A stretch of 64,000 nt of DNA. It comes from Laetmonice hystrix. Lineage: Eukaryota. Under the pieces are notes generated by a model. That model had not been told where the DNA came from and did no database searches. It saw only the letters and a list, made by a program, of their open reading frames with translations. Numbering within the stretch: position 1 is the first letter of the stretch; each line of letters begins with the position of its first letter. This document shows, piece after piece, positions 1-31,298 of this stretch. The stretch covers positions 26,972,001-27,036,000 of the forward strand of contig OZ249436.1 of NCBI GenBank assembly GCA_965235115.1, read 5' to 3'. A program made the position numbers and the translations under genes.

Positions 1-73
1 AGCCTCCCCCTTCCCAATCCCCATGATATGGCTGACTGGCCCTTAGACATTACCCCGAACCACCCAGCCAACA

Positions 74-94
74 CCCTCCCTCTTCCCAATCCCC
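74..94 (-). other. Canonical G-quadruplex motif (minus strand) / i-motif (plus strand), representative of one per consensus monomer
   Basis: + strand CCC T CCC TCTT CCC AAT CCCC corresponds to - strand GGGG ATT GGG AAGA GGG A GGG, matching four G3+ runs with 1-7 nt loops. Confidence 0.75.
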
Positions 95-3079
95 ATGATA
101 TGGCTGACTGGCCCTCAGACATTACCCCGAACCACTCAGCCAACACGCTCCTTCTTCCCAATCCCCATGATATGGCTGAATGTCCCTCACACATTACCCC
201 GAACCACTCAGCCAACCCCCTCCCTCTTCCCAATCCCCACGATATGGCTGACTGGCCCTTAGACATTACCCGGACCACTCAGCCAACACCCTCCCTCTTG
301 CCAATCCCCATGATATGGCTGACTGGCCCTTAGACATTACCCCGAACCACTCAGCCAACACCTTCCCCCCTTTTTCCAATCCCAATGATATGGTTGACAG
401 GCCCTGAGATGTTACCCCTAACCACTCAGCCAACATCCTCCCTCTTCCCAATCCCCATGATATGGCTGACTGGCCCTCAGACATTACCCCGAACCACTCA
501 GCCAACACCCTCCCCTTCCCAATTCCATGATATGGCTGACTGGCCCTTAGACATTATCCCAAACCACCCAGCCAACACCCTCCCTCTTCCCAATCCCCAT
601 GATATGGCTGACTGGCCCTCACTCATTACCCCGAACCACTGAGCCAACACTCTCCCCCTTCCCAATCCCATGATATGGCTGACTGGCCCTCAGACATTAC
701 CCCGAACGACTGAGCCAACACGCTCCCTCTTCCCAATCCCCATGATATGGCTGAATGTCCCTCACACATTACCCCGAACCACTCAGCCAACCCCCTCCCT
801 CTTCCAAATCCCCACGATATGGCTGACTGGCCCTTAGACATTACCCGGACCACTCAGCCAACACCCTCCCTCTTGCCAATCCCCATGATATGGTTGACTG
901 GCCCTCAGATGTTACCCCTAACCACTCAGCCAACACCCTTCATGTTCCCAATCCCCATGATATGGCTGACTGACCCTCACTCATTACCCCGAACCACTCA
1001 GCCAACCCCCTCCCTCTTCCCAATCCCCACGATATGGCTGAGTGGCCCTTAGGCATTACCCGGACCACTCAGCCAACACCCTCCCTCTTGCCAATCCCCA
1101 TGATATGGCTGACTGGCCCTCAGACATTACCCCGAACGACTGAGCCAACACGCTCCCTCTTCCCAATCCCCATGATACGGCTGAATGTCCCTCACACATT
1201 ACCCCGAACCACTCAGCCAACCCCCTCCCTCTTCCCAATCCCCACGATATGGCTGACTGGCCCTTAGGCATTACCCCGAACCACTCAGCCAACACCCTCC
1301 CTCTTCCCAATCCCCATGATATGGCTGACTGGCCCTTGGACATTACCCCGAACCACTCAGCCAACACCTTCCCCCCTCTTTCCAATCCCAATGATATGGT
1401 TGACTGGCCCTCAGATGTTACCCCTAACCACTCAGCCAACACCCTTCATGTTCCCAATCCCCATGATATGGCTGACTGGCCCTCACTCATTACCCCGAAC
1501 CACTCAGCCAACACCCTCCCTCTACCCAATCCCCATGATATGGCTGACTGGCCCTTAGCCATTACCCCGAACCACTCAGCCAACACCCTCCCACTTCCCA
1601 ATCCCCATGATATGGCTGACTGGCCCTTAGACATTACCCGGACCACTCAGCCAACACCCTCCCTCTTGCCAATCCCCATGATATGGCTGACTGGCCCTCA
1701 GACATTACCCCGAACCACTCAGCCAACAGCCTCCCCCTTCCCAATCCCCATGATATGGCTGACTGGCCCTCAGACATTACCCCGAACCACCCAGCCAACA
1801 CCCTCCCTCTTCCCAATCCCCATGATATGGCTGACTGGCCCTCAGACATTACCCCGAACCACTCAGCCAACACGCTCCTTCTTCCCAATCCCCATGATAT
1901 GGCTGAATGTCCCTCACACATTACCCCGAACCACTCAGCCAACCCCCTCCCTCTTCCCAATCCCCACGATATGGCTGACTGGCCCTTAGACATTACCCGG
2001 ACCACTCAGCCAACACCCTCCCTCTTGCCAATCCCCATGATATGGCTGACTGGCCCTTAACATTACCCCGAACCACTCAGCCAACACCTTCCCCCCTTTT
2101 TCCAATCCCAATGATATGGTTGACAGGCCCTGAGATGTTACCCCTAACCACTCAGCCAACATCCTCCCTCTTCCCAATCCCCATGATATGGCTGACTGGC
2201 CCTCAGACATTACCCCGAACCACTCAGCCAACACCCTCCCCTTCCCAATCCCATGATATGGCTGACTGGCCCTTAGACATTATCCCAAACCACCCAGCCA
2301 ACACCCTCCCTCTTCCCAATCCCCATGATATGGCTGACTGGCCCTCACTCATTACCCCGAACCACTCAGCCAACACTCTCCCCCTTCCCAATCCCATGAT
2401 ATGGCTGACTGGCCCTCAGACATTACCCCGAACGACTGAGCCAACACGCTCCCTCTTCCCAATCCCCATGATATGGCTGAATGTCCCTCACACATTACCC
2501 CGAACCACTCAGCCAACCCCCTCCCTCTTCCCAATCCCCACGATATGGCTGACTGGCCCTTAGACATTACCCGGACCACTCAGCCAACACCCTCCCTCTT
2601 GCCAATCCCCATGATATGGCTGACTGGCCCTTAGACATTACCCCGAACCACTCAGCCAACACCCTCCCTCTTCCCAATCCCCATGATATGGCTGACTGGC
2701 CCTTAGACATTACCCCGAACCACTCAGCCAACACCCTCCCTCTTCCCAATCCCCAAGATATGGCTGACTGGCCCTCAGACATTACTCCGAACCACCCACC
2801 CAACACCCTCCCTCTTTCCAATCCCCATGATATGGCTGACTGACCCCCAGACATTACCCCGAACCACTCAGCCAACACCCTCCCCCTTCCCAATCCCCAT
2901 GATATGGCTGACTGGCCCTTAGACATTATCCCAAACCACCCAGCCAACACCCTCCCTCTTCCCAATCCCCATGATATGGCTGACTGTCCCTCAGACATTA
3001 CCCCGAACCACTCAGCCAACACCCTCCCTCTTCCCAATCCCCATGATATGGCTGACTGGACCACAGACATTACCCCGAA

Positions 3080-3541
3080 TAGCCGGGTCCCCAGCTCTAT
3101 ATTAACTTCGTATATAGAGCCTGGCGTAGGCCAATCGAAGCGAGCATTGTGATTGGCCCATCGAAAACATGGACGCAAACGAGGTATAGTTCCGTACCCT
3201 CCGTATTTCTCCAACAAGACACAAATATTTTCATCAATCCCTTTAAAATACAAGTGTTAAATGTCCTCGCTTTTCTGGATGTAAACATAGCGTCAGCAGT
3301 CCCACCACCTGCTACGGTCTGCATACGCAGGGGCATGTTGCTATTGTTGGCCACTCCCGGCCACGCTCCAAGCAGAAGTCAATCACTCTGTTAACGCTGA
3401 CCAACGGACCGGAGGCGGAAGTGATTAGCTCCGAGGCGGAAGTGCTTGGAGATCACCACTTCCGTTTTACAGCTTTCTGTTAGCCATCACCGGGCCTAAC
3501 ATCAAGCGGATGCGTATGGTAAGGCGGCGGGGACCAGGCTA
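3080..3541. mobile_element. Module A: 462-bp non-autonomous TIR DNA transposon (MITE-like, possibly AcademH-related), copy 1
   Basis: Left end is TAGCCGGGTCCCC. Right end is GGGGACCAGGCTA (reverse complement TAGCCTGGTCCCC, 12/13 match). Flanked by the direct repeat TACCCCGAA at 3071-3079 and 3542-3550, with the satellite resuming in phase. No transposase ORF. Confidence 0.92.
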
Positions 3542-3707
3542 TACCCCGAACAACTCAACTAACACCCTCCCTCTTCCCAATCCCCATGATATGGCTGACT
3601 GGCCCTTAGACATTACCCCGAACCACTCAGCCAACACCTTCCCCTCTTCCTAATCCCCATGATACGGCTGTCTGGCCCTAAGACATTCCCTCAAACCACT
3701 CAACCAA

Positions 3708-4074
3708 ATTCATCATTGTTGATTTTTACTATAGTCATTCAGTTACAACAAGACAAGAATTATATGTGTGCAGGGGTGGCGTCGTGACACAGTGCAGATA
3801 TTTCATCTGAAGGGTCAACTCCCACAAACTTTTTTTCACTGTTTTCTTTTGTGATTTTTTGGGTATTTTTCCCCTTTTCTTCTATACTACCACCTCCAAC
3901 CACCCAGAGTGACGCTCCAGTACAGCGAAATCAAATTAACCTTGATATAAACACCCAGCAGACATATCTCAGTACTGCGACATCCATTACCCACAAACTT
4001 TTGTTTCATTTTTTTCTCTTTTGATTTTTTGGGGCTATTTTTCGTTTTTCTTCTATACTACCACCTCCAACCAA
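3708..4074. repeat. Module B: ~367-bp non-satellite T-rich spacer with an internal ~83-bp diverged direct repeat (reference copy)
   Basis: Sequence unrelated to the monomer starts at ATTCATCATTGTTG. CCCACAAACTTTT...TTCTTCTATACTACCACCTCCAACCA occurs at 3821-3902 and 3990-4073. Confidence 0.9.
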
Positions 4075-4229
4075 TCCTATATCCCCCTTCCCAATCCCTG
4101 ACATGACTGATTGGTCTTCAGACATTCCCTCCAAACACTTAGCCGACATCTCATCCCCTTCCCAATCCACATGCTGTGGCTGTCTGGCCCTCAGACATTA
4201 CCTCTAACCACACAACCAACACCTTCCCC

Positions 4230-4327
4230 ACACTCACTCCCACAGGGTGATGAAACGAATGGGGCCTATTGTGACCCGGGCCCCAAGGGGAATGACAATG
4301 ATCATAAATGATGATAAGATGACTCGA
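4230..4327 (+). mobile_element. Module C: ~98-bp insert, putative 5'-truncated non-LTR retroposon 3' end (reference copy)
   Basis: A stem-loop TGGGGCC(12 nt)GGCCCCA at 4260-4285 is followed by a degenerate (ATG)n tail, ATGACAATGATCATAAATGATGATAAGATGA. The satellite is in phase on both sides. The insert is certain, its identity is inferred. Confidence 0.4.
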
Positions 4328-5608
4328 TTTCCCAACCCCTATAATATGGCTAACTGGCCGTGTGACGTTAACCCTAACCACTCAGCCAACACCTTCCCCC
4401 CTCTTTCCAATCCCAATGATATGGTTGACTGGCCCTCAGATGTTACCCCTAACCACTCAGCCAACACCCTTCATGTTCCCAATCCCCATGATATGGCTGA
4501 CTGGCCCTCACTCATTACCCCGAACCACTCAGCCAACACCCTCCCTCTATCCAATCCCCATGATATGGCTGACTGGCCCTTAGACATTACCCCGAACCAC
4601 TCAACCAACACCCTCCCTCTTCCCAATCCCCATGATATGGCTGACTGGCCCTCAGACATTACCCCGAACCACTCAGCCAACACCCTCCCTCTTCCCAATC
4701 CCCATGATATGGCTGACTGGCCCTCAGACATTACCCCGCACCACCCAGCCAACACCCTCCCTCTTTCCAATCCCCAGGATATGGCTGACTGACCCTCAGA
4801 CATTACCCCGAACCACTCAGCCAACACCCTCCCCCTTCCCAATCCCCATGATATGGCTGACTGGCCCTTAGACATTATCCCAAAGCACCCAGCCAACACC
4901 ATCCCCCTTCCCAATCCCCATGATATGGCTGACTGGTCCTCAGACATTACCCCGAACCACAGAGCCAACACCCTCCCTCGACCTAATCCCCATGATATGG
5001 CTGACTGGCCCTCAGACATTACCCCGAACCACTCACAGCCAACACCCTCCCTCTTCCCAATCCCCATGACATGGCTGACTGGCCCTCAGACATTACCCCG
5101 AACCACTCACCCAACACCCTCCCTCTTCCCAATCCCCATGATATGGCTGACTCGCCCTTAGACATTACCCCGAACCACTCAGCCAACACCTTCATCCCTT
5201 CACAGTCTCCATGATATGGCCGACTGGCCCTTAGACATTACCCCGAACCACTCAGCCAACACCCTCCCTCTTGCCAATCCCCATGATATGGCTGACTGGC
5301 CCTTAGACATTACCCCGAACCACTCAGCCAACACCCTCCCACTTCCCAATCCCCATGATATGGCTGACTGGCCCTTAGACATTACCCCGAAACACTCAGC
5401 CAACACCTTCATCCCTTCACAATCTCCATGATATGGCTGACTGGCCCTTAGACATTATCCCAAACCACCCAGCCAACACCCTCCCTCTTCCCAATCCCCA
5501 TGATATGGCTGACTGTCCCTCAGACATTACCCCGAACCACTCAGCCAACACCCTCCCTCTTCCCAATCCCCATGATATGGCTGACTGGACCACAGACATT
5601 ACCCCGAA

Positions 5609-6070
5609 TAGCCGGGTCCCCAGCTCTATATTAACTTCGTATATAGAGCCTGGCGTAGGCCAATCGAAGCGAGCATTGTGATTGGCCCATCGAAAACATG
5701 GACGCAAACGAGGTATAGTTCCGTACCCTCCGTATTTCTCCAACAAGACACAAATATTTTCATCAATCCCTTTAAAATACAAGTGTTAAATGTCCTCGCT
5801 TTTCTGGATGTAAACATAGCGTCAGCAGTCCCACCACCTGCTACGGTCTGCATACGCAGGGGCATGTTGCTATTGTTGGCCACTCCCGGCCACGCTCCAA
5901 GCAGAAGTCAATCACTCTGTTAACGCTGACCAACGGACCGGAGGCGGAAGTGATTAGCTCCGAGGCGGAAGTGCTTGGAGATCACCACTTCCGTTTTACA
6001 GCTTTCTGTTAGCCATCACCGGGCCTAACATCAAGCGGATGCGTATGGTAAGGCGGCGGGGACCAGGCTA
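5609..6070. mobile_element. Module A MITE-like element, copy 2
   Basis: Same TIRs, TSD and internal sequence as 3080-3541, offset +2529. Confidence 0.92.
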
Positions 6071-6236
6071 TACCCCGAACAACTCAACCAACACCCTCCC
6101 TCTTCCCAATCCCCATGATATGGCTGACTGGCCCTTAGACATTACCCCGAACCACTCAGCCAACACCTTCCCCTCTTCCTAATCCCCATGATACGGCTGT
6201 CTGGCCCTAAGACATTCCCTCAAACCACTCAACCAA

Positions 6237-6856
6237 ATTCATCATTGTTGATTTTTACTATAGTCATTCAGTTACAACAAGACAAGAATTATATGTGTGC
6301 AGGGGTGGCGTCGTGACACAGTGCAGATATTTCATCTGAAGGGTCAACTCCCACAAACTTTTTTTCACTGTTTTCTTTTGTGATTTTTTGGGTATTTTTC
6401 CCCTTTTCTTCTATACTACCACCTCCAACCACCCAGAGTGACGCTCCAGTACAGCGAAATCAAATTAACCTTGATATAAACACCCAGCAGACATATCTCA
6501 GTACTGCGACATCCATTACCCACAAACTTTTGTTTCATTTTTTTCTCTTTTGATTTTTTGGGGCTATTTTTCGTTTTTCTTCTATACTACCACCTCCAAC
6601 CAATCCTATATCCCCCTTCCCAATCCCTGACATGACTGATTGGTCTTCAGACATTCCCTCCAAACACTTAGCCGACATCTCATCCCCTTCCCAATCCACA
6701 TGCTGTGGCTGTCTGGCCCTCAGACATTACCTCTAACCACACAACCAACACCTTCCCCACACTCACTCCCACAGGGTGATGAAACGAATGGGGCCTATTG
6801 TGACCCGGGCCCCAAGGGGAATGACAATGATCATAAATGATGATAAGATGACTCGA
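6237..6856. repeat. B + two degenerate monomers + C cassette, haplotype 1 (MITE-linked)
   Basis: Near-identical to 3708-4327. Markers TTCACTGT, CACTCCCACAG, GATAAGATG. Confidence 0.92.
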
Positions 6857-9800
6857 TTTCCCAACCCCTATAATATGGCTAACTGGCCGTGTGACGTTAA
6901 CCCTAACCACTCAGCCAACACCTTCCCCCCTCTTTCCAATCCCAATGATATGGTTGACTGGCCCTCAGATGTTACCCCTAACCACTCAGCCAACACCCTT
7001 CATGTTCCCAATCCCCATGATATGGCTGACTGGCCCTCACTCATTACCCCGAACCACTCAGCCAACACCCTCCCTCTATCCAATCCCCATGATATGGCTG
7101 ACTGGCCCTTAGACATTACCCCGAACCACTCAACCAACACCCTCCCTCTTCCCAATCCCCATGATATGGCTGACTGGCCCTCAGACATTACCCCGAACCA
7201 CTCAGCCAACACCCTCCCTCTTCCCAATCCCCATGATATGGCTGACTGGCCCTCAGACATTACCCCGCACCACCCAGCCAACACCCTCCCTCTTTCCAAT
7301 CCCCAGGATATGGCTGACTGACCCTCAGACATTACCCCGAACCACTCAGCCAACACCCTCCCCCTTCCCAATCCCCATGATATGGCTGACTGGCCCTTAG
7401 ACATTATCCCAAAGCACCCAGCCAACACCATCCCCCTTCCCAATCCCCATGATATGGCTGACTGGTCCTCAGACATTACCCCGAACCACAGAGCCAACAC
7501 CCTCCCTCGACCTAATCCCCATGATATGGCTGACTGGCCCTCAGACATTACCCCGAACCACTCACAGCCAACACCCTCCCTCTTCCCAATCCCCATGACA
7601 TGGCTGACTGGCCCTCAGACATTACCCCGAACCACTCACCCAACACCCTCCCTCTTCCCAATCCCCATGATATGGCTGACTCGCCCTTAGACATTACCCC
7701 GAACCACTCAGCCAACACCTTCATCCCTTCACAGTCTCCATGATATGGCCGACTGGCCCTTAGACATTACCCCGAACCACTCAGCCAACACCCTCCCTCT
7801 TGCCAATCCCCATGATATGGCTGACTGGCCCTTAGACATTACCCCGAACCACTCAGCCAACACCCTCCCACTTCCCAATCCCCATGATATGGCTGACTGG
7901 CCCTTAGACATTACCCCGAAACACTCAGCCAACACCTTCATCCTTTCACATTCTCCATGATATGGCCGACTGGCCCTTAGACATTACCCCGAACCACTCA
8001 GCCAACACCCTCCCTCTTGCCAATCCCCATGATATGGCTGACCGGCCCTTAGACATTACCCCGAACCACTCAGCCAACACCCTCCCTCTTGCCAATCCCC
8101 ATGATATGGCTGACTGGCCCTTAGACATTACCCCGAACCACTCAGCCAACACCTTCCCTCTTCCCAATCCCCATGATATGGCTGACTGGCCCTCAGACAT
8201 TACCCCGAACCACTCAGCCAACAGCCTCCCCCTTCCCAATCCCCATGATATGGCTGACTGGCCCTTAGACATTACCCCGAACCACCCAGCCAACACCCTC
8301 CCTCTTCCCAATCCCCATGATATGGCTGACTGGCCCTCAGACATTACCCCGAACCACTCAGCCAACACGCTCCTTCTTCCCAATCCCCATGATATGGCTG
8401 AATGTCCCTCACACATTACCCCGAACCACTCAGCCAACCCCCTCCCTCTTCCCAATCCCCACGATATGGCTGACTGGCCCTTAGACATTACCCGGACCAC
8501 TCAGCCAACACCCTCCCTCTTGCCAATCCCCATGATATGGCTGACTGGCCCTTAGACATTACCCCGAACCACTCAGCCAACACCTTCCCCCCTTTTTCCA
8601 ATCCCAATGATATGGTTGACAGGCCCTGAGATGTTACCCCTAACCACTCAGCCAACATCCTCCCTCTTCCCAATCCCCATGATATGGCTGACTGGCCCTC
8701 AGACATTACCCCGAACCACTCAGCCAACACCCTCCCCTTCCCAATTCCATGATATGGCTGACTGGCCCTTAGACATTATCCCAAACCACCCAGCCAACAC
8801 CCTCCCTCTTCCCAATCCCCATGATATGGCTGACTGGCCCTCACTCATTACCCCGAACCACTCAGCCAACACTCTCCCCCTTCCCAATCCCATGATATGG
8901 CTGACTGGCCCTCAGACATTACCCCGAACGACTGAGCCAACACGCTCCCTCTTCCCAATCCCCATGATATGGCTGAATGTCCCTCACACATTACCCCGAA
9001 CCACTCAGCCAACCCCCTCCCTCTTCCAAATCCCCACGATATGGCTGACTGGCCCTTAGACATTACCCGGACCACTCAGCCAACACCCTCCCTCTTGCCA
9101 ATCCCCATGATATGGTTGACTGGCCCTCAGATGTTACCCCTAACCACTCAGCCAACACCCTTCATGTTCCCAATCCCCATGATATGGCTGACTGACCCTC
9201 ACTCATTACCCCGAACCACTCAGCCAACCCCCTCCCTCTTCCCAATCCCCACGATATGGCTGAGTGGCCCTTAGGCATTACCCGGACCACTCAGCCAACA
9301 CCCTCCCTCTTGCCAATCCCCATGATATGGCTGACTGGCCCTCAGACATTACCCCGAACGACTGAGCCAACACGCTCCCTCTTCCCAATCCCCATGATAC
9401 GGCTGAATGTCCCTCACACATTACCCCGAACCACTCAGCCAACCCCCTCCCTCTTCCCAATCCCCACGATATGGCTGACTGGCCCTTAGGCATTACCCCG
9501 AACCACTCAGCCAACACCCTCCCTCTTCCCAATCCCCATGATATGGCTGACTGGCCCTTGGACATTACCCCGAACCACTCAGCCAACACCTTCCCCCCTC
9601 TTTCCAATCCCAATGATATGGTTGACTGGCCCTCAGATGTTACCCCTAACCACTCAGCCAACACCCTCCCTCTACCCAATCCCCATGATATGGCTGACTG
9701 GCCCTTAGCCATTACCCCGAACCACTCAGCCAACACCCTCCCTCTTCCCTATCCCCATGATATGGCTGACTGACCCTCAGACATTACCCCGAACCACTCA

Positions 9801-10599
9801 GCCAACACCCTCCCCTTCCCAATCCCATGATATGGCTGACTGGCCCTTAGACATTATCCCAAACCACCCAGCCAACACCCTCCCTCTTCCCAATCCCCAT
9901 GATATGGCTGACTGTCCCTCAGACATTACCCCGAACCACTCAGCCAACACCCTCCCACTTCCCAATCCCCATGATATGGCTGACTGGCCCTTAGACATTA
10001 CCCGGACCACTCAGCCAACACCCTCCCTCTTGCCAATCCCCATGATATGGCTGACTGGCCCTTAGACATTATCCCAAAGCACCCAGCCAACACCCTCCCC
10101 CTTCCCAATCCCCATGATATGGCTGACTGGTCCTTAGACATTACCCCGAACCACAGAGCCAACACCCTCCCTCGACCCAATCCCCATGATATGGCTGACT
10201 GGCCCTCAGACATTACCCCGAACCACTCACAGCCAACACCCTCCCTCTTCCCAATCCCCATGACATGGCTGACTGGCCCTCAGACATTACCCCGAACCAC
10301 TCAGCCAACACCCTCCCTCTTCCCAATCCCCATGATATGGCTGACTGGCCCTTAGACATTACCCCGAACCACTCAGCCAACACCCTCCCACTTCCCAATC
10401 CCCATGATATGGCTGACTGGCCCTCAGACATTACCCCGAACCACTCACAGCCAACACCCTCCCACTTCCCAATCCCCATGATATGGCTGACTGGCCCTTA
10501 GACATTACCCCGAACCACTCAGCCAACACCTTCCCCTCTTCCTAATCCCCATGATACGGCTGTCTGGCCCTAAGACATTCCCTCAAACCACTCAACCAA

Positions 10600-11219
10600 A
10601 TTCATCATTGTTGATTTTTACTATAGTCATTCAGTTACAACAAGACAAGAATTATATGTGTGCAGGGGTGGCGTCGTGACACAGTGCAGATATTTCATCT
10701 GAAGGGTCAACTCCCACAAACTTTTTTTCATTGTTTTCTTTTGTGATTTTTTGGGTATTTTCCCCCTTTTCTTCTATACTACCACCTCCAACCACCCAGA
10801 GTGACGCTCCAGTACAGCGAAATCAAATTAACCTTGATATAAACACCCAGCAGACATATCTCAGTACTGCGACATCCATTACCCACAAACTTTTGTTTCA
10901 TTTTTTTCTCTTTTGATTTTTTGGGGCTATTTTTCGTTTTTCTTCTATACTACCACCTCCAACCAATCCTATATCCCCCTTCCAAATCCCTGACATGACT
11001 GATTGGTCTTCAGACATTCCCTCCAAACACTTAGCCGACATCTCATCCCCTTCCCAATCCACATGCTGTGGCTGTCTGGCCCTCAGACATTACCTCTAAC
11101 CACACAACCAACACCTTCCCCACACTCACTACCACAGGGTGATGAAACGAATGGGGCCTATTGTGACCCGGGCCCCAAGGGGAATGACAATGATCATAAA
11201 TGATGATCAGATGACTCGA
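10600..11219. repeat. B+C cassette, haplotype 2 (no MITE upstream)
   Basis: Near-identical to 3708-4327. Markers TTCATTGT, CACTACCACAG, GATCAGATG. Confidence 0.92.
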
Positions 11220-14200
11220 TTTCCCAACCCCTATAATATGGCTAACTGGCCGTGTGACGTTAACCCTAACCACTCAGCCAACACTCCCCCCTCTTTCCAA
11301 TCCCAATGATATGGTTGACTGGCCCTCAGATGTTACCCCTAACCACTCAGCCAACACCCTTCATGTTCCCAATCCCCATGATATGGCTGACTGGCCCTCA
11401 CTCATTACCCCGAACCACTCAGCCAACACCCTCCCTCTACCCAATCCCCATGATATGGCTGACTGGCCCTTAGACATTACCCCGAACCACTCAACCAACA
11501 CCCTCCCTCTTCCCAATCCCCATGATATGGCTGACTGGCCCTCAGACATTACCCCGAACCACTCAGCCAACAGCCTCCCCCTTCCCAATCCCCATGATAT
11601 GGCTGACTGGCCCTTAAGACATTACCCCGAACCACCCAGCCAACACCCTCCCTCTTCCCAATCCCCATGATATGGCTGACTGGCCCTCAGACATTACCCC
11701 GAACCACTCAGCCAACACGCTCCTTCTTCCCAATCCCCATGATATGGCTGAATGTCCCTCACACATTACCCCGAACCACTCAGCCAACCCCCTCCCTCTT
11801 CCCAATCCCCACGATATGGCTGACTGGCCCTTAGACATTACCCGGACCACTCAGCCAACACCCTCCCTCTTGCCAATCCCCATGATATGGCTGACTGGCC
11901 CTTAACATTACCCCGAACCACTCAGCCAACACCTTCCCCCCTTTTTCCAATCCCAATGATATGGTTGACAGGCCCTGAGATGTTACCCCTAACCACTCAG
12001 CCAACATCCTCCCTCTTCCCAATCCCCATGATATGGCTGACTGGCCCTCAGACATTACCCCGAACCACTCAGCCAACACCCTCCCCTTCCCAATCCCATG
12101 ATATGGCTGACTGGCCCTTAGACATTATCCCAAACCACCCAGCCAACACCCTCCCTCTTCCCAATCCCCATGATATGGCTGACTGGCCCTCACTCATTAC
12201 CCCGAACCACTCAGCCAACACTCTCCCCCTTCCCAATCCCATGATATGGCTGACTGGCCCTCAGACATTACCCCGAACGACTGAGCCAACACGCTCCCTC
12301 TTCCCAATCCCCATGATATGGCTGAATGTCCCTCACACATTACCCCGAACCACTCAGCCAACCCCCTCCCTCTTCCCAATCCCCACGATATGGCTGACTG
12401 GCCCTTAGACATTACCCGGACCACTCAGCCAACACCCTCCCTCTTGCCAATCCCCATGATATGGTTGACTGGCCCTCAGATGTTACCCCTAACCACTCAG
12501 CCAACACCCTTCATGTTCCCAATCCCCATGATATGGCTGACTGACCCTCACTCATTACCCCGAACCACTCAGCCAACCCCCTCCCTCTTCCCAATCCCCA
12601 CGATATGGCTGACTGGCCCTTAGGCATTACCCGGACCACTCAGCCAACACCCTCCCTCTTGCCAATCCCCATGATATGGCTGACTGGCCCTCAGACATTA
12701 CCCCGAACGAATGAGCCAACACGCTCCCTCTTCCCAATCCCCATGATATGGCTGAATGTCCCTCACACATTACCCCGAACCACTCAGCCAACCCCCTCCC
12801 TCTTCCCAATCCCCACGATATGGCTGACTGGCCCTTAGGCATTACCCCGAACCACTCAGCCAACACCCTCCCTCTTCCCAATCCCCATGATATGGCTGAC
12901 TGGCCCTTAGACATTACCCCGAACCACTCAGCCAACACCTTCCCCCCTCTTTCCAATCCCAATGATATGGTTGACTGGCCCTCAGATGTTACCCCTAACC
13001 ACTCAGCCAACACCCTTCATGTTCCCAATCCCCATGATATGGCTGACTGGCCCTCACTCATTACCCCGAACCACTCAGCCAACACCCTCCCCCTTCCCAA
13101 TCCCCATGATATGGCTGACTGGCCCTTAAGACATTACCCCGAACCACCCAGCCAACACCCTCCCTCTTCCCAATCCCCATGATATGGCTGACTGGCCCTC
13201 AGACATTACCCCGAACCACTCAGCCAACACGCTCCTTCTTCCCAATCCCCATTATATGGCTGAATGTCCCTCACACATTACCCCGAACCACTCAGCCAAC
13301 CCCCTCCCTCTTCCCAATCCCCACGATATGGCTGACTGGCCCTTAGACATTACCCGGACCACTCAGCCAACACCCTCCCTCTTGCCAATCCCCATGATAT
13401 GGCTGACTGGCCCTTAACATTACCCCGAACCACTCAGCCAACACCTTCCCCCCTTTTTCCAATCCCAATGATATGGTTGACAGGCCCTGAGATGTTACCC
13501 CTAACCACTCAGCCAACATCCTCCCTCTTCCCAATCCCCATGATATGGCTGACTGGCCCTCAGACATTACCCCGAACCACTCAGCCAACACCCTCCCCTT
13601 CCCAATCCCATGATATGGCTGACTGGCCCTTAGACATTATCCCAAACCACCCAGCCAACACCCTCCCTCTTCCCAATCCCCATGATATGGCTGACTGGCC
13701 CTCACTCATTACCCCGAACCACTCAGCCAACACTCTCCCCCTTCCCAATCCCATGATATGGCTGACTGGCCCTCAGACATTACCCCGAACGACTGAGCCA
13801 ACACGCTCCCTCTTCCCAATCCCCATGATATGGCTGAATGTCCCTCACACATTACCCCGAACCACTCAGCCAACCCCCTCCCTCTTCCCAATCCCCACGA
13901 TATGGCTGACTGGCCCTTAGACATTACCCGGACCACTCAGCCAACACCCTCCCTCTTGCCAATCCCCATGATATGGTTGACTGGCCCTCAGATGTTACCC
14001 CTAACCACTCAGCCAACACCCTTCATGTTCCTAATCCCCATGATATGGCTGACTGACCCTCACTCATTACCCCGAACCACTCAGCCAACCCCCTCCCTCT
14101 TCCCAATCCCCACGATATGGCTGACTGGCCCTTAGGCATTACCCGGACCACTCAGCCAACACCCTCCCTCTTGCCAATCCCCATGATATGGCTGACTGGC

Positions 14201-17200
14201 CCTCAGACATTACCCCGAACGAATGAGCCAACACGCTCCCTCTTCCCAATCCCCATGATATGGCTGAATGTCCCTCACACATTACCCCGAACCACTCAGC
14301 CAACCCCCTCCCTCTTCCCAATCCCCACGATATGGCTGACTGGCCCTTAGGCATTACCCCGAACCACTCAGCCAACACCCTCCCTCTTCCCAATCCCCAT
14401 GATATGGCTGACTGGCCCTTAGACATTACCCCGAACCACTCAGCCAACACCTTCCCCCCTCTTTCCAATCCCAATGATATGGTTGACTGGCCCTCAGATG
14501 TTACCCCTAACCACTCAGCCAACACCCTTCATGTTCCCAATCCCCATGATATGGCTGACTGGCCCTCACTCATTACCCCGAACCACTCAGCCAACACCCT
14601 CCCTCTACCCAATCCCCATGATATGGCTGACTGGCCCTTAGCCATTACCCCGAACCACTCAGCCAACACCCCCCCTCTTCCCAATCCCCATGATATGGCT
14701 GACTGGCCCTCAGACATTACCCCGAACCACTCAGCCAACACCCTCCCTCTTCCCAATCCCCATGATATGGCTGACTGGCCCTCAGACATTACCCCGAACC
14801 ACCCAGCCAACACCCTCCCTCTTTCCAATCCCCATGATATGGCTGACTGACCCTCAGACATTACCCCGAACCACTCAGCCAACACCCTCCCCTTCCCAAT
14901 CCCATGATATGGCTGACTGGCCCTTAGACATTATCCCAAACCACCCAGCCAACACCCTCCCTCTTCCCAATCCCCATGATATGGCTGACTGTCCCTCAGA
15001 CATTACCCCGAACCACTCAGCCAACACCCTCCCACTTCCCAATCCCCATGATATGGCTGACTGACCCTCAGACATTACCCCGAACCACTCAGCCAACACC
15101 CTCCCCTTCCCAATCCCATGATATGGCTGACTGGCCCTTAGACATTATCCCAAACCACCCAGCCAACACCCTCCCTCTTCCCAATCCCCATGATATGGCT
15201 GACTGTCCCTCAGACATTACCCCGAACCACTCAGCCAACACCCTTCCACTTCCCAATCCCCATGATATGGCTGACTGGCCCTTAGACATTACCCGGACCA
15301 CTCAGCCAACACCCTCCATCTTGCCAATCCCCATGATATGGCTGACTGGCCCTTAGACATTATCCCAAAGCACCCAGCCAACACCCTCCCCCCTTCCCAA
15401 TCCCCATGATATGGCTGACTGGTCCTCAGACATTACCCCGAACCACAGAGCCAACACCCTCCCTCGACCCAATCCCCATGATATGGCTGACTGGCCCTCA
15501 GACATTACCCCGAACCACTCACAGCCAACACCCTCCCTCTTCCCAATCCCCATGACATGGCTGACTGGCCCTCAGACATTACCCCGAACCACTCAGCCAA
15601 CACCCTCCCTCTTCCCAATCCCCATGATATGGCTGACTGGCCCTTAGACATTACCCCGAACCACTCAGCCAACACCTTCCCCCCTCTTTCCAATCCCAAT
15701 GATATGGTTGACTGGCCCTCAGATGTTACCCCTAACCACTCAGCCAACACCCTTCATGTTCCCAATCCCCATGATATGGCTGACTGGCCCTCACTCATTA
15801 CCCCGAACCACTCAGCCAACACCCTCCCTCTACCCAATCCCCATGATATGGCTGACTGGCCCTTAGCCATTACCCCGAACCACTCAGCCAACACCCCCCC
15901 TCTTCCCAATCCCCATGATATGGCTGACTGGCCCTCAGACATTACCCCGAACCACTCAGCCAACACCCTCCCTCTTCCCAATCCCCATGATATGGCTGAC
16001 TGGCCCTCAGACATTACCCCGAACCACCCAGCCAACACCCTCCCTCTTTCCAATCCCCATGATATGGCTGACTGACCCTCAGACATTACCCCGAACCACT
16101 CAGCCAACACCCTCCCCTTCCCAATCCCATGATATGGCTGACTGGCCCTTAGACATTATCCCAAACCACCCAGCCAACACCCTCCCTCTTCCCAATCCCC
16201 ATGATATGGCTGACTGTCCCTCAGACATTACCCCGAACCACTCAGCCAACACCCTCCCACTTCCCAATCCCCATGATATGGCTGACTGACCCTCAGACAT
16301 TACCCCGAACCACTCAGCCAACACCCTCCCCTTCCCAATCCCATGATATGGCTGACTGGCCCTTAGACATTATCCCAAACCACCCAGCCAACACCCTCCC
16401 TCTTCCCAATCCCCATGATATGGCTGACTGTCCCTCAGACATTACCCCGAACCACTCAGCCAACACCCTTCCACTTCCCAATCCCCATGATATGGCTGAC
16501 TGGCCCTTAGACATTACCCGGACCACTCAGCCAACACCCTCCATCTTGCCAATCCCCATGATATGGCTGACTGGCCCTTAGACATTATCCCAAAGCACCC
16601 AGCCAACACCCTCCCCCCTTCCCAATCCCCATGATATGGCTGACTGGTCCTCAGACATTACCCCGAACCACAGAGCCAACACCCTCCCTCGACCCAATCC
16701 CCATGATATGGCTGACTGGCCCTCAGACATTACCCCGAACCACTCACAGCCAACACCCTCCCTCTTCCCAATCCCCATGACATGGCTGACTGGCCCTCAG
16801 ACATTACCCCGAACCACTCAGCCAACACCCTCCCTCTTCCCAATCCCCATGATATGGCTGACTGGCCCTTAGACATTACCCCGAACCACTCAGCCAACAC
16901 CCTCCCTCTTGCCAATCCCCATGATATGGCTGACTGGCCCTTAGACATTACCCCGAACCACTCAGCCAACACCTTCCCCCCTCTTTCCAATCCCAATGAT
17001 ATGGTTGACTGGCCCGCAGATGTTACCCCTAACCACTCAGCCAACACCCTTCATGTTCCCAATCCCCATGATATGGCTGACTGGCCCTCACTCACTACCC
17101 CGAACCACTCAGCCAACACCCTCCCTCTACCCAATCCCCATGATATGGCTGACTGGCCCTTAGACATTACCCCGAACCACTCAGCCAACACCCTCCCTCT

Positions 17201-20200
17201 TCCCAATCCCCATGATATGGCTGACTGGCCCTTAGACATTACCCCGAACCACTCAGCCAACACCCTCCCTCTTCCCAATCCCCAAGATATGGCTGACTGG
17301 CCCTCAGACATTACTCCGAACCACCCACCCAACACCCTCCCTCTTTCCAATCCCCATGATATGGCTGACTGACCCCCAGACATTACCCCGAACCACTCAG
17401 CCAACACCCTCCCCCTTCCCAATCCCCATGATATGGCTGACTGGCCCTCAGACATTACCCCGAACCACTCAGCCAACAGCCTCCCCCTTCCCAATCCCCA
17501 TGATATGGCTGACTGGCCCTTAGACATTACCCCGAACCACCCAGCCAACACCCTCCCTCTTCCCAATCCCCATGATATGGCTGACTGGCCCTTAGACATT
17601 ACCCGGACCACTCAGCCAACACCCTCCCTCTTGCCAATCCCCATGATATGGCTGACTGGCCCTTAGACATTACCCCGAACCACTCAGCCAACACCTTCCC
17701 CCCTTTTTCCAATCCCAATGATATGGTTGACAGGCCCTGAGATGTTACCCCTAACCACTCAGCCAACATCCTCCCTCTTCCCAATCCCCATGATATGGCT
17801 GACTGGCCCTCAGACATTACCCCGAACCACTCAGCCAACACCCTCCCCTTCCCAATTCCATGATATGGCTGACTGGCCCTTAGACATTATCCCAAACCAC
17901 CCAGCCAACACCCTCCCTCTTCCCAATCCCCATGATATGGCTGACTGGCCCTCACTCATTACCCCGAACCACTCAGCCAACACTCTCCCCCTTCCCAATC
18001 CCATGATATGGCTGACTGGCCCTCAGACATTACCCCGAACGACTGAGCCAACACGCTCCCTCTTCCCAATCCCCATGATATGGCTGAATGTCCCTCACAC
18101 ATTACCCCGAACCACTCAGCCAACACCTTCCCCCCTCTTTCCAATCCCAATGATATGGTTGACTGGCCCTCAGATGTTACCCCTAACCACTCAGCCAACA
18201 CCCTTCATGTTCCCAATCCCCATGATATGGCTGACTGGCCCTCACTCATTACCCCGAACCACTCAGCCAACACCCTCCCTCTACCCAATCCCCATGATAT
18301 GGCTGACTGGCCCTTAGCCATTACCCCGAACCACTCAGCCAACACCCTCCCTCTTCCCTATCCCCATGATATGGCTGACTGACCCTCAGACATTACCCCG
18401 AACCACTCAGCCAACACCCTCCCCTTCCCAATCCCATGATATGGCTGACTGGCCCTTAGACATTATCCCAAACCACCCAGCCAACACCCTCCCTCTTCCC
18501 AATCCCCATGATATGGCTGACTGTCCCTCAGACATTACCCCGAACCACTCAGCCAACACCCTCCCACTTCCCAATCCCCATGATATGGCTGACTGGCCCT
18601 TAGACATTACCCGGACCACTCAGCCAACACCCTCCCTCTTGCCAATCCCCATGATATGGCTGACTGGCCCTTAGACATTATCCCAAAGCACCCAGCCAAC
18701 ACCCTCCCCCTTCCCAATCCCCATGATATGGCTGACTGGTCCTTAGACATTACCCCGAACCACAGAGCCAACACCCTCCCTCGACCCAATCCCCATGATA
18801 TGGCTGACTGGCCCTCAGACATTACCCCGAACCACTCACAGCCAACACCCTCCCTCTTCCCAATCCCCATGACATGGCTGACTGGCCCTCAGACATTACC
18901 CCGAACCACTCAGCCAACACCCTCCCTCTTCCCAATCCCCATGATATGGCTGACTGGCCCTTAGACATTACCCCGAACCACTCAGCCAACACCCTCCCAC
19001 TTCCCAATCCCCATGATATGGCTGACTGGCCCTCAGACATTACCCCGAACCACTCACAGCCAACACCCTCCCTCTTCCCAATCCCCATGACATGGCTGAC
19101 TGGCCCTCAGACATTACCCCGAACCACTCAGCCAACACCCTCCCTCTTCCCAATCCCCATGATATGGCTGACTCGCCCTTAGACATTACCCCGAACCACT
19201 CAGCCAACACCTTCATCCCTTCACAGTCTCCATGATATGGCCGACTGGCCCTTAGACATTACCCCGAACCACTCAGCCAACACCCTCCCTCTTGCCAATC
19301 CCCATGATATGGCTGACTGGCCCTTAGACATTACCCCGAACCACTCAGCCAACACCTTCCCACTTCCCAATCCCCATGATATGGCTGACTGGCCCTTAGA
19401 CATTACCCCGAAACACTCAGCCAACACCTTCATCCCTTCACAATCTCCATGATATGGCCGACTGGCCCTTAGACATTACCCCGAACCACTCAGCCAACAC
19501 CCTCCCTCTTGCCAATCCCCATGATATGGCTGACTGGCCCTCAGACATTACCCCGAACCACTCAGCCAACACCCTCCCTCTTGCCAATCCCCATGATATG
19601 GCTGACTGGCCCTTAGACATTACCCCGAACCACTCAGCCAACACCTTCCCTCTTCCCAATCCCCATGATATGGCTGACTGGCCCTCAGACATTACCCCGA
19701 ACCACTCAGCCAACAGCCTCCCCCTTCCCAATCCCCATGATATGGCTGACTGGCCCTTAGACATTACCCCGAACCACCCAGCCAACACCCTCCCTCTTCC
19801 CAATCCCCATGATATGGCTGACTGGTCCTCAGACATTACCCCGAACCACTCAGCCAACACCCTCCCTCTACCCAATCCCCATGATATGGCTGACTGGCCC
19901 TTAGACATTACCCCGAACCACTCAGCCAACACCCTCCCTCTTCCCAATCCCCATGATATGGCTGACTGGCCCTCAGACATTACCCCGAACCACTCAGCCA
20001 ACACCCTCCCTCTTCCCAATCCCCATGATATGGCTGACTGGCCCTCAGACATTACCCCGAACCACCCACCCAACACCCTCCCTCTTTCCATTCCCCATGA
20101 TATGGCTGACTGACCCCCAGACATTACCCCGAACCACTCAGCCAACACCCTCCCCCTTCCCAATCCCATGATATGGCTGACTGGCCCTTAGACATTATCC

Positions 20201-20339
20201 CAAACCACCCAGCCAACACCCTCCCTCTTCCCAATCCCCATGATATGGCTGACTGTCCCTCAGACATTACCCCGAACCACTCAGCCAACACCCTCCCTCT
20301 TCCCAATCCCCATGATATGGCTGACTGGCCCTCAGACAT

Positions 20340-20348
20340 TACCCCGAA
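20340..20348 (+). other. Empty (uninserted) target site of module A
   Basis: A single TACCCCGAA is followed by the diagnostic CAACTCAACCAAC variant seen after the MITE copies. It lies the same 158 bp upstream of module B and has the same order of upstream monomer variants. Confidence 0.85.
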
Positions 20349-20505
20349 CAACTCAACCAACACCCTCCCTCTTCCCAATCCCCATGATATGGCTGACTGG
20401 CCCTTAGACATTACCCCGAACCACTCAGCCAACACCTTCCCCTCTTCCTAATCCCCATGATACGGCTGTCTGGCCCTAAGACATTCCCTTAAACCACTCA
20501 ACCAA

Positions 20506-21125
20506 ATTCATCATTGTTGATTTTTACTATAGTCATTCAGTTACAACAAGACAAGAATTATATGTGTGCAGGGGTGGCGTCGTGACACAGTGCAGATATT
20601 TCATCTGAAGGGTCAACTCCCACAAACTTTTTTTCATTGTTTTCTTTTGTGATTTTTTGGGTATTTTTCCCCTTTTCTTCTATACTACCACCTCCAACCA
20701 CCCAGAGTGACGCTCCAGTACAGCGAAATCAAATTAACCTTGATATAAACACCCAGCAGACATATCTCAGTACTGCGACATCCATTACCCACAAACTTTT
20801 GTTTCATTTTTTTCTCTTTTGATTTTTTGGGGCTATTTTTCGTTTTTCTTCTATACTACCACCTCCAACCAATCCTATATCCCCCTTCCAAATCCCTGAC
20901 ATGACTGATTGGTCTTCAGACATTCCCTCCAAACACTTAGCCGACATCTCATCCCCTTCCCAATCCACATGCTGTGGCTGTCTGGCCCTCAGACATTACC
21001 TCTAACCACACAACCAACACCTTCCCCACACTCACTACCACAGGGTGATGAAACGAATGGGGCCTATTGTGACCCGGGCCCCAAGGGGAATGACAATGAT
21101 CATAAATGATGATAAGATGACTCGA
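20506..21125. repeat. B+C cassette, intermediate haplotype, following the empty MITE site
   Basis: Has TTCATTGT and CACTACCACAG (type 2) but GATAAGATG and a type-1 downstream monomer order. Confidence 0.9.
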
Positions 21126-22924
21126 TTTCCCAACCCCTATAATATGGCTAACTGGCCGTGTGACGTTAACCCTAACCACTCAGCCAACACCTTCCCCCCT
21201 CTTTCCAATCCCAATGATATGGTTGACTGGCCCTCAGATGTTACCCTTAACCACTCAGCCAACACCCTTCATGTTCCCAATCCCCATGATATGGCTGACT
21301 GGCCCTCACTCATTACCCCGAACCACTCAGCCAACACCCTCCCTCTACCCAATCCCCATGATATGGCTGACTGGCCCTTAGACATTACCCCGAACCACTC
21401 AACCAACACCCTCCCTCTTCCCAATCCCCATGATATGGCTGACTGGCCCTCAGACATTACCCCGAACCACTCAGCCAACACCCTCCCTCTTCCCAATCCC
21501 CATGATATGGCTGACTGGCCCTCAGACATTACCCCGCACCACCCAGCCAACACCCTCCCTCTTTCCAATCCCCAGGATATGGCTGACTGACCCTCAGACA
21601 TTACCCCGAACCACTCAGCCAACACCCTCCCCCTTCCCAATCCCCATGATATGGCTGACTGGCCCTTAGACATTATCCCAAAGCACCCAGCCAACACCCT
21701 CCCCCTTCCCAATCCCCATGATATGGCTGACTGGTCCTCAGACATTACCCCGAACCACAGAGCCAACACCCTCCCTCGACCCAATCCCCATGATATGGCT
21801 GACTGGCCCTCAGACATTACCCCGAACCACTCACAGCCAACACCCTCCCTCTTCCCAATCCCCATGACATGGCTGACTGGCCCTCAGACATTACCCCGAA
21901 CCACTCAGCCAACACCCTCCCTCTTCCCAATCCCCATGATATGGCTGACTCGCCCTTAGACATTACCCCGAACCACTCAGCCAACACCTTCATCCCTTCA
22001 CAGTCTCCATGATATGGCCGACTGGCCCTTAGACATTACCCCGAACCACTCAGCCAACACCCTCCCTCTTGCCAATCCCCATGATATGGCTGACTGGCCC
22101 TTAGACATTACCCCGAACCACTCAGCCAACACCCTCCCACTTCCCAATCCCCATGATATGGCTGACTGGCCCTTAGACATTACCCCGAAACACTCAGCCA
22201 ACACCTTCATCCCTTCACAATCTCCATGATATGGCCGACTGGCCCTTAGACATTACCCCGAACCACTCAGCCAACACCCTCCCTCTTGCCAATCCCCATG
22301 ATATGGCTGACTGGCCCTCAGACATTACCCCGAACCACTCAGCCAACACCCTCCCTCTTGCCAATCCCCATGATATGGCTGACTGGCCCTTAGACATTAC
22401 CCCGAACCACTCAGCCAACACCTTCCCTCTTCCCAATCCCCATGATATGGCTGACTGGCCCTCAGACATTACCCCGAACCACTCAGCCAACAGCCTCCCC
22501 CTTCCCAATCCCCATGATATGGCTGACTGGCCCTTAGACATTACCCCGAACCACCCAGCCAACACCCTCCCTCTTCCCAATCCCCATGATATGGCTGACT
22601 GGCCCTCAGACATTACCCCGAACCACTCAGCCAACACCCTCCCTCTTCCCAATCCCCATGATATGGCTGACTCGCCCTTAGACATTACCCCGAACCACTC
22701 AGCCAACACCTTCATCCCTTCACAGTCTCCATGATATGGCCGACTGGCCCTTAGACATTACCCCGAACCACTCAGCCAACACCCTCCCTCTTGCCAATCC
22801 CCATGATATGGCTGACTGGCCCTTAGACATTACCCCGAACCACTCAGCCAACACCTTCCCCTCTTCCTAATCCCCATGATACGGCTGTCTGGCCCTAAGA
22901 CATTCCCTCAAACCACTCAACCAA

Positions 22925-23544
22925 ATTCATCATTGTTGATTTTTACTATAGTCATTCAGTTACAACAAGACAAGAATTATATGTGTGCAGGGGTGGCGTC
23001 GTGACACAGTGCAGATATTTCATCTGAAGGGTCAACTCCCACAAACTTTTTTTCACTGTTTTCTTTTGTGATTTTTTGGGTATTTTTCCCCTTTTCTTCT
23101 ATACTACCACCTCCAACCACCCAGAGTGACGCTCCAGTACAGCGAAATCAAATTAACCTTGATATAAACACCCAGCAGACATATCTCAGTACTGCGACAT
23201 CCATTACCCACAAACTTTTGTTTCATTTTTTTCTCTTTTGATGTTTTGGGGCTATTTTTCGTTTTTCTTCTATACTACCACCTCCAACCAATCCTATATC
23301 CCCCTTCCCAATCCCTGACATGACTGATTGGTCTTCAGACATTCCCTCCAAACACTTAGCCGACATCTCATCCCCTTCCCAATCCACATGCTGTGGCTGT
23401 CTGGCCCTCAGACATTACCTCTAACCACACAACCAACACCTTCCCCACACTCACTCCCACAGGGTGATGAAACGAATGGGGCCTATTGTGACCCGGGCCC
23501 CAAGGGGAATGACAATGATCATAAATGATGATAAGATGACTCGA
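22925..23544. repeat. B+C cassette, haplotype 1 markers but no MITE upstream
   Basis: Markers TTCACTGT, CACTCCCACAG, GATAAGATG. The upstream monomer is a CTTGCCAAT variant rather than the MITE flank. Confidence 0.9.
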
Positions 23545-26500
23545 TTTCCCAACCCCTATAATATGGCTAACTGGCCGTGTGACGTTAACCCTAACCACTC
23601 AGCCAACACCTTCCCCCCTCTTTCCAATCCCAATGATATGGTTGACTGGCCCTCAGATGTTACCCCTAACCACTCAGCCAACACCCTTCATGTTCCCAAT
23701 CCCCATGATATGGCTGACTGGCCCTCACTCATTACCCCGAACCACTCAGCCAACACCCTCCCTCTACCCAATCCCCATGATATGGCTGACTGGCCCTTAG
23801 ACATTACCCCGAACCACTCAACCAACACCCTCCCTCTTCCCAATCCCCATGATATGGCTGACTGGCCCTCAGACATTACCCCGAACCACTCAGCCAACAC
23901 CCTCCCTCGTCCCAATCCCCATGATATGGCTGACTGGCCCTCAGACATTACCCCGCACCACCCAGCCAACACCCTCCCTCTTTCCAATCCCCAGGATATG
24001 GCTGACTGACCCTCAGACATTACCCCGAACCACTCAGCCAACACCCTCCCCCTTCCCAATCCCCATGATATGGCTGACTGGCCCTTAGACATTATCCCAA
24101 AGCACCCAGCCAACACCATCCCCCTTCCCAATCCCCATGATATGGCTGACTGGTCCTCAGACATTACCCCGAACCACAGAGCCAACACCCTCCCTCGACC
24201 TAATCCCCATGATATGGCTGACTGGCCCTCAGACATTACCCCGAACCACTCACAGCCAACACCCTCCCTCTTCCCAATCCCCATGACATGGCTGACTGGC
24301 CCTCAGACATTACCCCGAACCACTCACCCAACACCCTCCCTCTTCCCAATCCCCATGATATGGCTGACTCGCCCTTAGACATTACCCCGAACCACTCAGC
24401 CAACACCTTCATCCCTTCACAGTCTCCATGATATGGCCGACTGGCCCTTAGACATTACCCCGAACCACTCAGCCAACACCCTCCCTCTTGCCAATCCCCA
24501 TGATATGGCTGACTGGCCCTTAGACATTACCCCGAACCACTCAGCCAACACCCTCCCACTTCCCAATCCCCATGATATGGCTGACTGGCCCTTAGACATT
24601 ACCCCGAAACACTCAGCCAACACCTTCATCCCTTCACAATCTCCATGATATGGCCGACTGGCCCTTAGACATTACCCCGAACCACTCAGCCAACACCCTC
24701 CCTCTTGCCAATCCCCATGATATGGCTGACCGGCCCTTAGACATTACCCCGAACCACTCAGCCAACACCCTCCCTCTTGCCAATCCCCATGATATGGCTG
24801 ACTGGCCCTTAGACATTACCCCGAACCACTCAGCCAACACCTTCCCTCTTCCCAATCCCCATGATATGGCTGACTGGCCCTCAGACATTACCCCGAACCA
24901 CTCAGCCAACAGCCTCCCCCTTCCCAATCCCCATGATATGGCTGACTGGCCCTTAGACATTACCCCGAACCACCCAGCCAACACCCTCCCTCTTCCCAAT
25001 CCCCATGATATGGCTGACTGGCCCTCAGACATTACCCCGAACCACTCAGCCAACACGCTCCTTCTTCCCAATGCCTATGATATGGCTGAATGTCCCTCAC
25101 ACATTACCCCGAACCACTCAGCCAACCCCCTCCCTCTTCCCAATCCCCACGATATGGCTGACTGGCCCTTAGACATTACCCGGACCACTCAGCCAACACC
25201 CTCCCTCTTGCCAATCCCCATGATATGGCTGACTGGCCCTTAGACATTACCCCGAACCACTCAGCCAACACCTTCCCCCCTTTTTCCAATCCCAATGATA
25301 TGGTTGACAGGCCCTGAGATGTTACCCCTAACCACTCAGCCAACATCCTCCCTCTTCCCAATCCCCATGATATGGCTGACTGGCCCTCAGACATTACCCC
25401 GAACCACTCAGCCAACACCCTCCCCTTCCCAATTCCATGATATGGCTGAATGGCCCTTAGACATTATCCCAAACCACCCAGCCAACACCCTCCCTCTTCC
25501 CAATCCCCATGATATGGCTGACTGGCCCTCACTCATTACCCCGAACCACTCAGCCAACACTCTCCCCCTTCCCAATCCCATGATATGGCTGACTGGCCCT
25601 CAGACATTACCCCGAACGACTGAGCCAACACGCTCCCTCTTCCCAATCCCCATGATATGGCTGAATGTCCCTCACACATTACCCCGAACCACTCAGCCAA
25701 CCCCCTCCCTCTTCCAAATCCCCACGATATGGCTGACTGGCCCTTAGACATTACCCGGACCACTCAGCCAACACCCTCCCTCTTGCCAATCCCCATGATA
25801 TGGTTGACTGGCCCTCAGATGTTACCCCTAACCACTCAGCCAACACCCTTCATGTTCCCAATCCCCATGATATGGCTGACTGACCCTCACTCATTACCCC
25901 GAACCACTCAGCCAACCCCCTCCCTCTTCCCAATCCCCACGATATGGCTGAGTGGCCCTTAGCCATTACCCCGAACCACTCAGCCAACACCTTCCCTCTT
26001 CCCAATCCCCATGATATGGCTGACTGGCCCTCAGACATTACCCCGAACCACTCAGCCAACAGCCTCCCCCTTCCCAATCCCCATGATATGGCTGACTGGC
26101 CCTTAGACATTACCCCGAACCACCCAGCCAACACCCTCCCTCTTCCCAATCCCCATGATATGGCTGACTGGCCCTCAGACATTACCCCGAACCACTCAGC
26201 CAACACGCTCCTTCTTCCCAATGCCTATGATATGGCTGAATGTCCCTCACACATTACCCCGAACCACTCAGCCAACCCCCTCCCTCTTCCCAATCCCCAC
26301 GATATGGCTGACTGGCCCTTAGACATTACCCGGACCACTCAGCCAACACCCTCCCTCTTGCCAATCCCCATGATATGGCTGACTGGCCCTTAGACATTAC
26401 CCCGAACCACTCAGCCAACACCTTCCCCCCTTTTTCCAATCCCAATGATATGGTTGACAGGCCCTGAGATGTTACCCCTAACCACTCAGCCAACATCCTC

Positions 26501-30836: not shown

Positions 30837-31298
30837 TAGCCGGGTCCCCAGCTCTATATTAACTTCGTATATAGAGCCTGGCGTAGGCCAATCGAAGCGA
30901 GCATTGTGATTGGCCCATCGAAAACATGGACGCAAACGAGGTATAGTTCCGTACCCTCCGTATTTCTCCAACAAGACACAAATATTTTCATCAATCCCTT
31001 TAAAATACAAGTGTTAAATGTCCTCGCTTTTCTGGATGTAAACATAGCGTCAGCAGTCCCACCACCTGCTACGGTCTGCATACGCAGGGGCATGTTGCTA
31101 TTGTTGGCCACTCCCGGCCACGCTCCAAGCAGAAGTCAATCACTCTGTTAACGCTGACCAACGGACCGGAGGCGGAAGTGATTAGCTCCGAGGCGGAAGT
31201 GCTTGGAGATCACCACTTCCGTTTTACAGCTTTCTGTTAGCCATCACCGGGCCTAACATCAAGCGGATGCGTATGGTAAGGCGGCGGGGACCAGGCTA
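30837..31298. mobile_element. Module A MITE-like element, copy 3
   Basis: Same TIRs, TSD, flanks and internal sequence as copy 1. Confidence 0.92.

Follow-up and report, generated by a model that had tools for sequence, protein, structure and literature searches.

Transposons of the hAT group as a rule produce target-site duplications (TSDs) of 8 bp and have YAG termini. Elements of the AcademH lineage encode a RecQ-like helicase together with their transposase. This lineage was reportedly defined by Kojima in 2020 (Mob DNA 11:15). In the accessible part of a published comparison, the TSDs of AcademH elements are 9 or 10 bp long, those of AcademX 3 or 4 bp, and those of Merlin 8 bp (PMC10045372). 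According to the Repbase rule, as given in the available section of PMC4455052, non-autonomous elements are assigned from equal TSD length together with alignment of terminal positions 1–11 with at most one mismatch.

We describe here a 462-bp element with TAG..CTA termini and a 9-bp TSD, found in a satellite array. Its sequence features indicate that it is probably a non-autonomous, MITE-like cut-and-paste transposon of the Academ superfamily, for which an AcademH-type transposase would most likely provide mobility in trans.

A 462-bp inverted-repeat element in a satellite array

The whole stretch of DNA that was analysed, 64,000 nucleotides (the window), is almost wholly a tandem array of a unit of approximately 72 bp. 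A length of exactly 72 bp is found in 474 of the 737 monomers, whose mean identity to the majority sequence is 94.6%. Inserts in the array were defined by masking the satellite, which yielded a 462-bp segment (n = 6), a 374-bp block (n = 14) and a 100-bp block (n = 15). The positions of these and other features are given in Table 1.

Table 1. Positions of the transposon copies, their ends and the surrounding array in the window
Feature	Position	Strand	Remarks
Non-autonomous TIR element, copy 1, 462 bp	3080..3541		Bounded as a non-satellite segment by the satellite register; no coding capacity
9-bp TSD, left copy	3071..3079		Within a satellite monomer
9-bp TSD, right copy	3542..3550		
Left outer TIR, 13 bp	3080..3092	+	Starts with TAG
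Right outer TIR, 13 bp	3529..3541	-	Ends with CTA; also seen at independent junctions in public runs
Perfect 9-bp hairpin stem with 9-nt loop, left end module	3094..3120 (3094–3102 / 3112–3120)		Inverted match and folding z
Inner inverted block, left	3120..3134	+	10/15 in the window copy, 12–13/15 with family alleles
Inner inverted block, right	3480..3494	-	Internal TAGCC at 3481–3485
Copy 2	5609..6070		100% identical; within a 2,529-bp local tandem duplication
Copy 3	30837..31298		100% identical
Copy 4	40276..40737		100% identical
Copy 5	50179..50640		100% identical
Copy 6	57567..58028		100% identical
Empty orthologous site	20340..20348		Diagnostic monomer as at the filled sites, with the 9-mer once; the 374-bp block lies 166 bp further on
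Host array, ~72-bp satellite in higher-order units	1..64000		With the 374-bp block (n = 14) and the 100-bp block (n = 15)

The boundaries of the 462-bp segment are given by the 72-bp satellite register, independently of its TIRs and TSD. Read as inverted repeats, the two terminal stretches of 13 bases agree at 12 of 13 positions; the probability of at least 12 matches at fixed ends by chance is approximately 6 × 10⁻⁷. The 9-mer immediately preceding the element is repeated exactly on its far side. None of seven stop-to-stop frames scanned in the element matched Pfam at the cut-off (best E 0.085; longest frame 103 aa), and no Rfam match was obtained between 3000 and 4500 at E up to 1. The element thus combines TIRs, a TSD and lack of coding capacity, as MITE-like elements do. 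These results bear out the initial annotation, which had described a 462-bp insert with 13-bp TIRs carrying one mismatch, an exact 9-bp duplication and no coding capacity. It had also pointed to 14-bp TIRs with a 7-bp TSD as a second way of reading the boundary; this reading is present in the window and is symmetric. Reading the TSD as 8 bp leaves the ends asymmetric.

The element carries promoter-like motifs. Two inverted boxes of the CCAAT type lie at 3129–3136 and 3151–3158, and an 8-mer found three times, at 3416, 3437 and 3457 (the last reversed), resembles an ETS/GABP site. The motifs at 3129–3158 and 3412–3464 are possibly remnants of the promoters of a parent element.

The other inserts have a structure of their own. 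Two decayed monomers lie between the 374-bp block (first occurrence 3708–4081) and the 100-bp block (4229–4328). The former contains an internal duplication with a spacing of approximately 170 bp, and weak inverted matches connect 3710–3740 to 4290–4314. Together, the two blocks may be relics of an older element. Several reading frames of the 72-bp unit itself contain no stops, giving rise to apparent short repeat 'proteins' of 100–230 aa. The satellite was considered as a giant repeat-protein exon and rejected as such: no stop-free stretch of 300 aa occurs in the six frames, because monomer variants of 70–75 bp disrupt every frame.

A single insertion multiplied with the array

The initial annotation was right that a satellite-embedded element is present at 3080–3541, and overlooked that the window contains six identical copies of it, an empty site and an inner inverted block. 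The six copies are in one orientation and have common flanks, with left flanks identical across 183–1,308 bp in five pairwise comparisons. A two-base variant of the left monomer occurs six times in the window, every time adjoining the element. All six copies lie 628 bp ahead of a 374-bp block, and eight of the 14 such blocks lack the element. Copy-to-copy spacings are 2,529, 25,228, 9,439, 9,903 and 7,388 bp, consistent with long near-identical array blocks. Blocks of this kind, up to 9.5 kb long and with 98% identity, extend from 24705 to 60901, and most higher-order units contain two spacers, of which one has the element and the other lacks it.

An empty counterpart of the insertion site is found at 20340. 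Compared with the filled sites, it shows two and zero base differences in the two upstream monomers, is out of register further upstream, and on the downstream side has 99.4–99.6% identity across 1,200 bp. The comparison sets the length of the insert at 471 bp, corresponding to 462 + 9 or 464 + 7 bp.

The six copies might also have arisen by separate, sequence-targeted insertions into the satellite, which is possible in principle as the 9-mer target is present in most monomers. However, all six carry the same two-base flank variant, which in the window is found only beside the element, and all six are 100% identical, lie at the same distance from the spacer block and have alleles seldom found in the family. 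Separate insertion is largely refuted already by these observations, and we regard it as extremely unlikely. A single transposon inserted into one satellite monomer with a 9-bp duplication, and multiplication of the array then produced six copies. As the six copies represent one insertion, they provide no evidence of repeated transposition. Their spread would be due to unequal exchange or replication slippage involving satellite units of 2.5 kb and 7.4–9.9 kb, rather than to transposition.

Related copies in public sequencing runs

The element sequence is present in five public runs, four from one organism sample and one from a marine metagenome; the best-matching run may derive from the source of the window itself. 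Four of the five (X1–X4) were aligned to positions 3035–3590 at 80% likeness. In X2–X4, 1,727–3,837 contigs aligned, satellite flanks included, covering 30 of 30 bins, and 40 variant positions were listed. The letter found in the window is the minority letter in X2 at nine of these 40 positions, for example at 3233 (97% other) and at 3304–3305 (99% other). Summed depth in X2, which is not a measure of copy number, was 73,000–570,000 at internal positions, compared with 46–92 for the listed long single contigs. These data suggest that copies of the family number on the order of one thousand, or more. Subject to the caveats of read alignment, the public organism sample contains a large and diverged family of which the element is a member.

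A joint omitting 471 bases, as expected of an empty site, was observed in two of the four runs (X2 and X3); in X3, nine letters at the joint fit either side. Two contigs of X1, with depths of 4 and 2 and aligned at 80% likeness, run from the 3′ end of the element into non-satellite DNA. At one of these junctions the terminal CTA is followed by G, at the other by C. The 14-bp TIR reading requires the element to be ATAG..CTAT, with T after CTA, and this T is absent from both junctions; the 9-bp TSD is therefore favoured over the 7-bp TSD.

No independent insertion with both flanks was found among the contigs aligned from X1–X4, so that the 9-bp TSD represents one event. According to the initial annotation, mobility would stay unproven if no copy existed outside this context. 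Copies in other contexts are indicated by the two non-satellite 3′ flanks in X1 and by the many diverged alleles.

Superfamily assignment

The termini of the element were compared with a curated bivalve library of 762 DDE families (PMC10294476, Additional file 31), of whose records the 5′ stretches were visible; the counts that follow refer to these stretches. Among the 100 Academ records, TAG is the start of 18 of the first 19. TAG starts are not exclusive to Academ, and are also present in hAT-Ac, hATw and some Harbinger records. All three records starting with TAGCC, as the element does, are Academ and none is hAT. Two Academ records match the left end and the reverse-complemented right end of the element, respectively, at 10 of 11 bases, with the TSDs of these records lying outside the visible part. 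The first 12 supplementary files of the same paper contained no match to the element.

The termini favour Academ, and within Academ the 9-bp TSD favours AcademH. The duplication, measured on both sides at one event, falls within the 9 or 10 bp of AcademH and differs from the 3 or 4 bp of AcademX, also when it is read as 7 bp. A distinctly unlikely alternative is that the element belongs to another or unnamed Academ lineage, one that makes 9-bp TSDs and has no helicase. It is suggested by the Academ-1 label of the best terminal matches (PMC10294476, visible records), and is opposed by the published split, which in its accessible part assigns 9–10 bp to AcademH and 3–4 bp to AcademX (PMC10045372). 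The records so labelled may belong to the lineage with 3–4-bp duplications, which would speak against AcademH for the element.

A hAT-family MITE, for example a hATw-like one, or an element whose TIRs are 14 bp and whose TSD is 7 bp long, would account for the symmetry of the 7-bp reading in the window. Four of the seven library records starting with TAGC are hATw, hAT-Ac records often start with TAGG or TAGA (PMC10294476, visible stretches), and the available section of PMC4455052 lists families with 7-bp TSDs in Repbase under hAT. However, this requires the final T that is lacking at both independent 3′ junctions, and none of the three visible records starting with ATAG is hAT. If the ends are TAG, the duplication measures 9 bp, and not the 8 bp that is usual for hAT. 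Among the first 14 hAT records of the library, 13 start with CAG and one with TAGG (PMC10294476). We therefore consider a hAT origin unlikely.

The length of the TSD would also suit a non-autonomous element of the MULE/Rehavkus type. MULE/MuDR elements have TSDs of 8–11 bp, a range that includes the 9 bp found here, and TIRs of 14 to 500 bp, and Rehavkus elements with 9-bp TSDs are present in annelids (PMC6446971, accessible part). Termini of this group start with G and its TIRs are usually long, whereas the element starts with T and has 13-bp TIRs; G is the first base in all 11 MULE records examined (of 39) and in all three Merlin records, which start with GG (PMC10294476, visible stretches). 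Nor does the element contain tandem subterminal repeats of the kind visible in several MULE records. A Merlin-type element would in addition have produced a TSD of 8 bp (PMC10045372, accessible part). A MULE/Rehavkus-type or Merlin-type origin is thus very unlikely, and AcademH within Academ is the assignment that we prefer.

Pattern scans of metagenomes, prokaryote genomes and viral contigs yielded no autonomous partner, and the three scans of prokaryote genomes and viral contigs gave no hits at all. A match at 5001–5035 of a 678-kb metagenome contig (L001), 35 bp long and 80% identical to the right end, was set aside as chance, the other end being absent nearby. None of the papers found in literature searches deals with the family of this element, which may be undescribed. 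Of the proposal in the initial annotation that this is a non-autonomous AcademH-type element, the mobile TIR element itself, its TAG..CTA ends, the Academ-like terminal 10-mers and the 9-bp TSD have stood, and the autonomous partner that it had suggested looking for was not found in the scans.

Structure of the transposon ends

The two ends of the element differ in structure. Stretches of the left end, which contains a perfect hairpin just inside the outer TIR, fold better than shuffled sequences (z = -2.1, -2.3 and -2.7). A hairpin at the right end was not supported by the same comparison with shuffles (z = -0.96, -0.22 and -0.46).

Further inside, the best inverted match is between offsets 41–55 from the left end and 48–62 from the right end, a difference of 7 bp between the two ends. 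In the window copy this inner block is not significant, its 10 of 15 matches being reached in 1,007 of 2,000 shuffles. Three of the five mismatches coincide with positions at which alleles are common in the family, and all three alleles shift the base to the right-end letter. The right-matching alleles account for 78–87% of depth at 3125, 76–86% at 3127 and 35–39% at 3132 in X2–X4. At 3128, an allele that is minor in the family differs from the right-end letter, although a loose contig end at 3124 carries the matching letter there. With family alleles, taken position by position and not as a single haplotype, the block reaches 12–13 of 15 matches; shuffles reach 12 in 250 of 20,000 cases and 13 in 14 of 20,000.

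With these alleles, each end extends inwards from the terminal TAGCC as far as a reversed copy of this motif, over 54 bp on the left and 61 bp on the right. Minor deletions make the right end 1–3 bp shorter in some family copies. On the strength of these patterns we suggest, tentatively and with more doubt than belief, that the ends may be organised as two unequal modules (54/61 bp), each bounded by the terminal TAGCC and its inward reversed copy, the left one with a hairpin.

Contigs in X2–X4 also contain joints from 3100 or 3103 to 3499, in which the first 21–24 bases of the element are fused to the last 43. These suggest mini-derivatives of approximately 65 bp without both inner blocks, or relatives with the same ends. 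Mobility of such derivatives would mean that the inner blocks are not needed, and would count against the split-end model.

Discussion

In the pathway that we propose, a transposase encoded elsewhere would bind both ends of the element, contacting the 13-bp outer TIR and the inner inverted block some 40–60 bp in. The element would then be excised and inserted at nicks staggered by 9 nt, with fill-in during repair giving the TSD. It may descend from a longer element that lost its interior by deletion, and the formation of shorter derivatives may be continuing.

Should conservation of the split layout extend through the family and AcademH, the transposase would pair two unlike ends, and, more speculatively, the hairpin at the end may be opened or extruded by the helicase, for which this would be a testable role. 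Split unequal ends, if general, would define the substrate of a little-studied transposase-helicase system.

The importance of the locus is modest. It brings to light a non-autonomous Academ-type family, probably of high copy number, in a marine invertebrate; the family is real, and the kind of element is already known. Two features of the locus are of more general use. A clean pair of filled and empty sites fixes the duplication length, and the expansion of higher-order satellite units multiplies a single transposon copy, so that identical copies need not reflect recent transposition.

Transposons amplified inside tandem arrays have been described, for example in the accessible part of PMC5932611, where a copy becomes part of the repeat unit and is multiplied without transposing. 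In the present array, by comparison, the satellite existed before the insertion, one short element is found in six of its 14 units with a spacer, and the empty allele persists.

Among transposon groups, some hATw and hAT-Ac records start with TAG, and hATw records with TAGC, as the element does, but none of those visible starts with TAGCC (PMC10294476). The closest terminal matches in the same library are two DNA/Academ-1 records: the first 10 bases of Academ_A.marissinica_60 are those of the left end of the element, and the first 10 bases of Academ_S.constricta_12 are the reverse complement of its right end. Both are autonomous and several kilobases long, and the likeness to the element stops at base 11 in their visible stretches. 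With the AcademH lineage, as characterised in the accessible parts of PMC10045372 and PMC10799480, the element shares the 9-bp TSD, Academ-type TAG termini and an animal host; it differs from that lineage in having neither a transposase nor a helicase gene.
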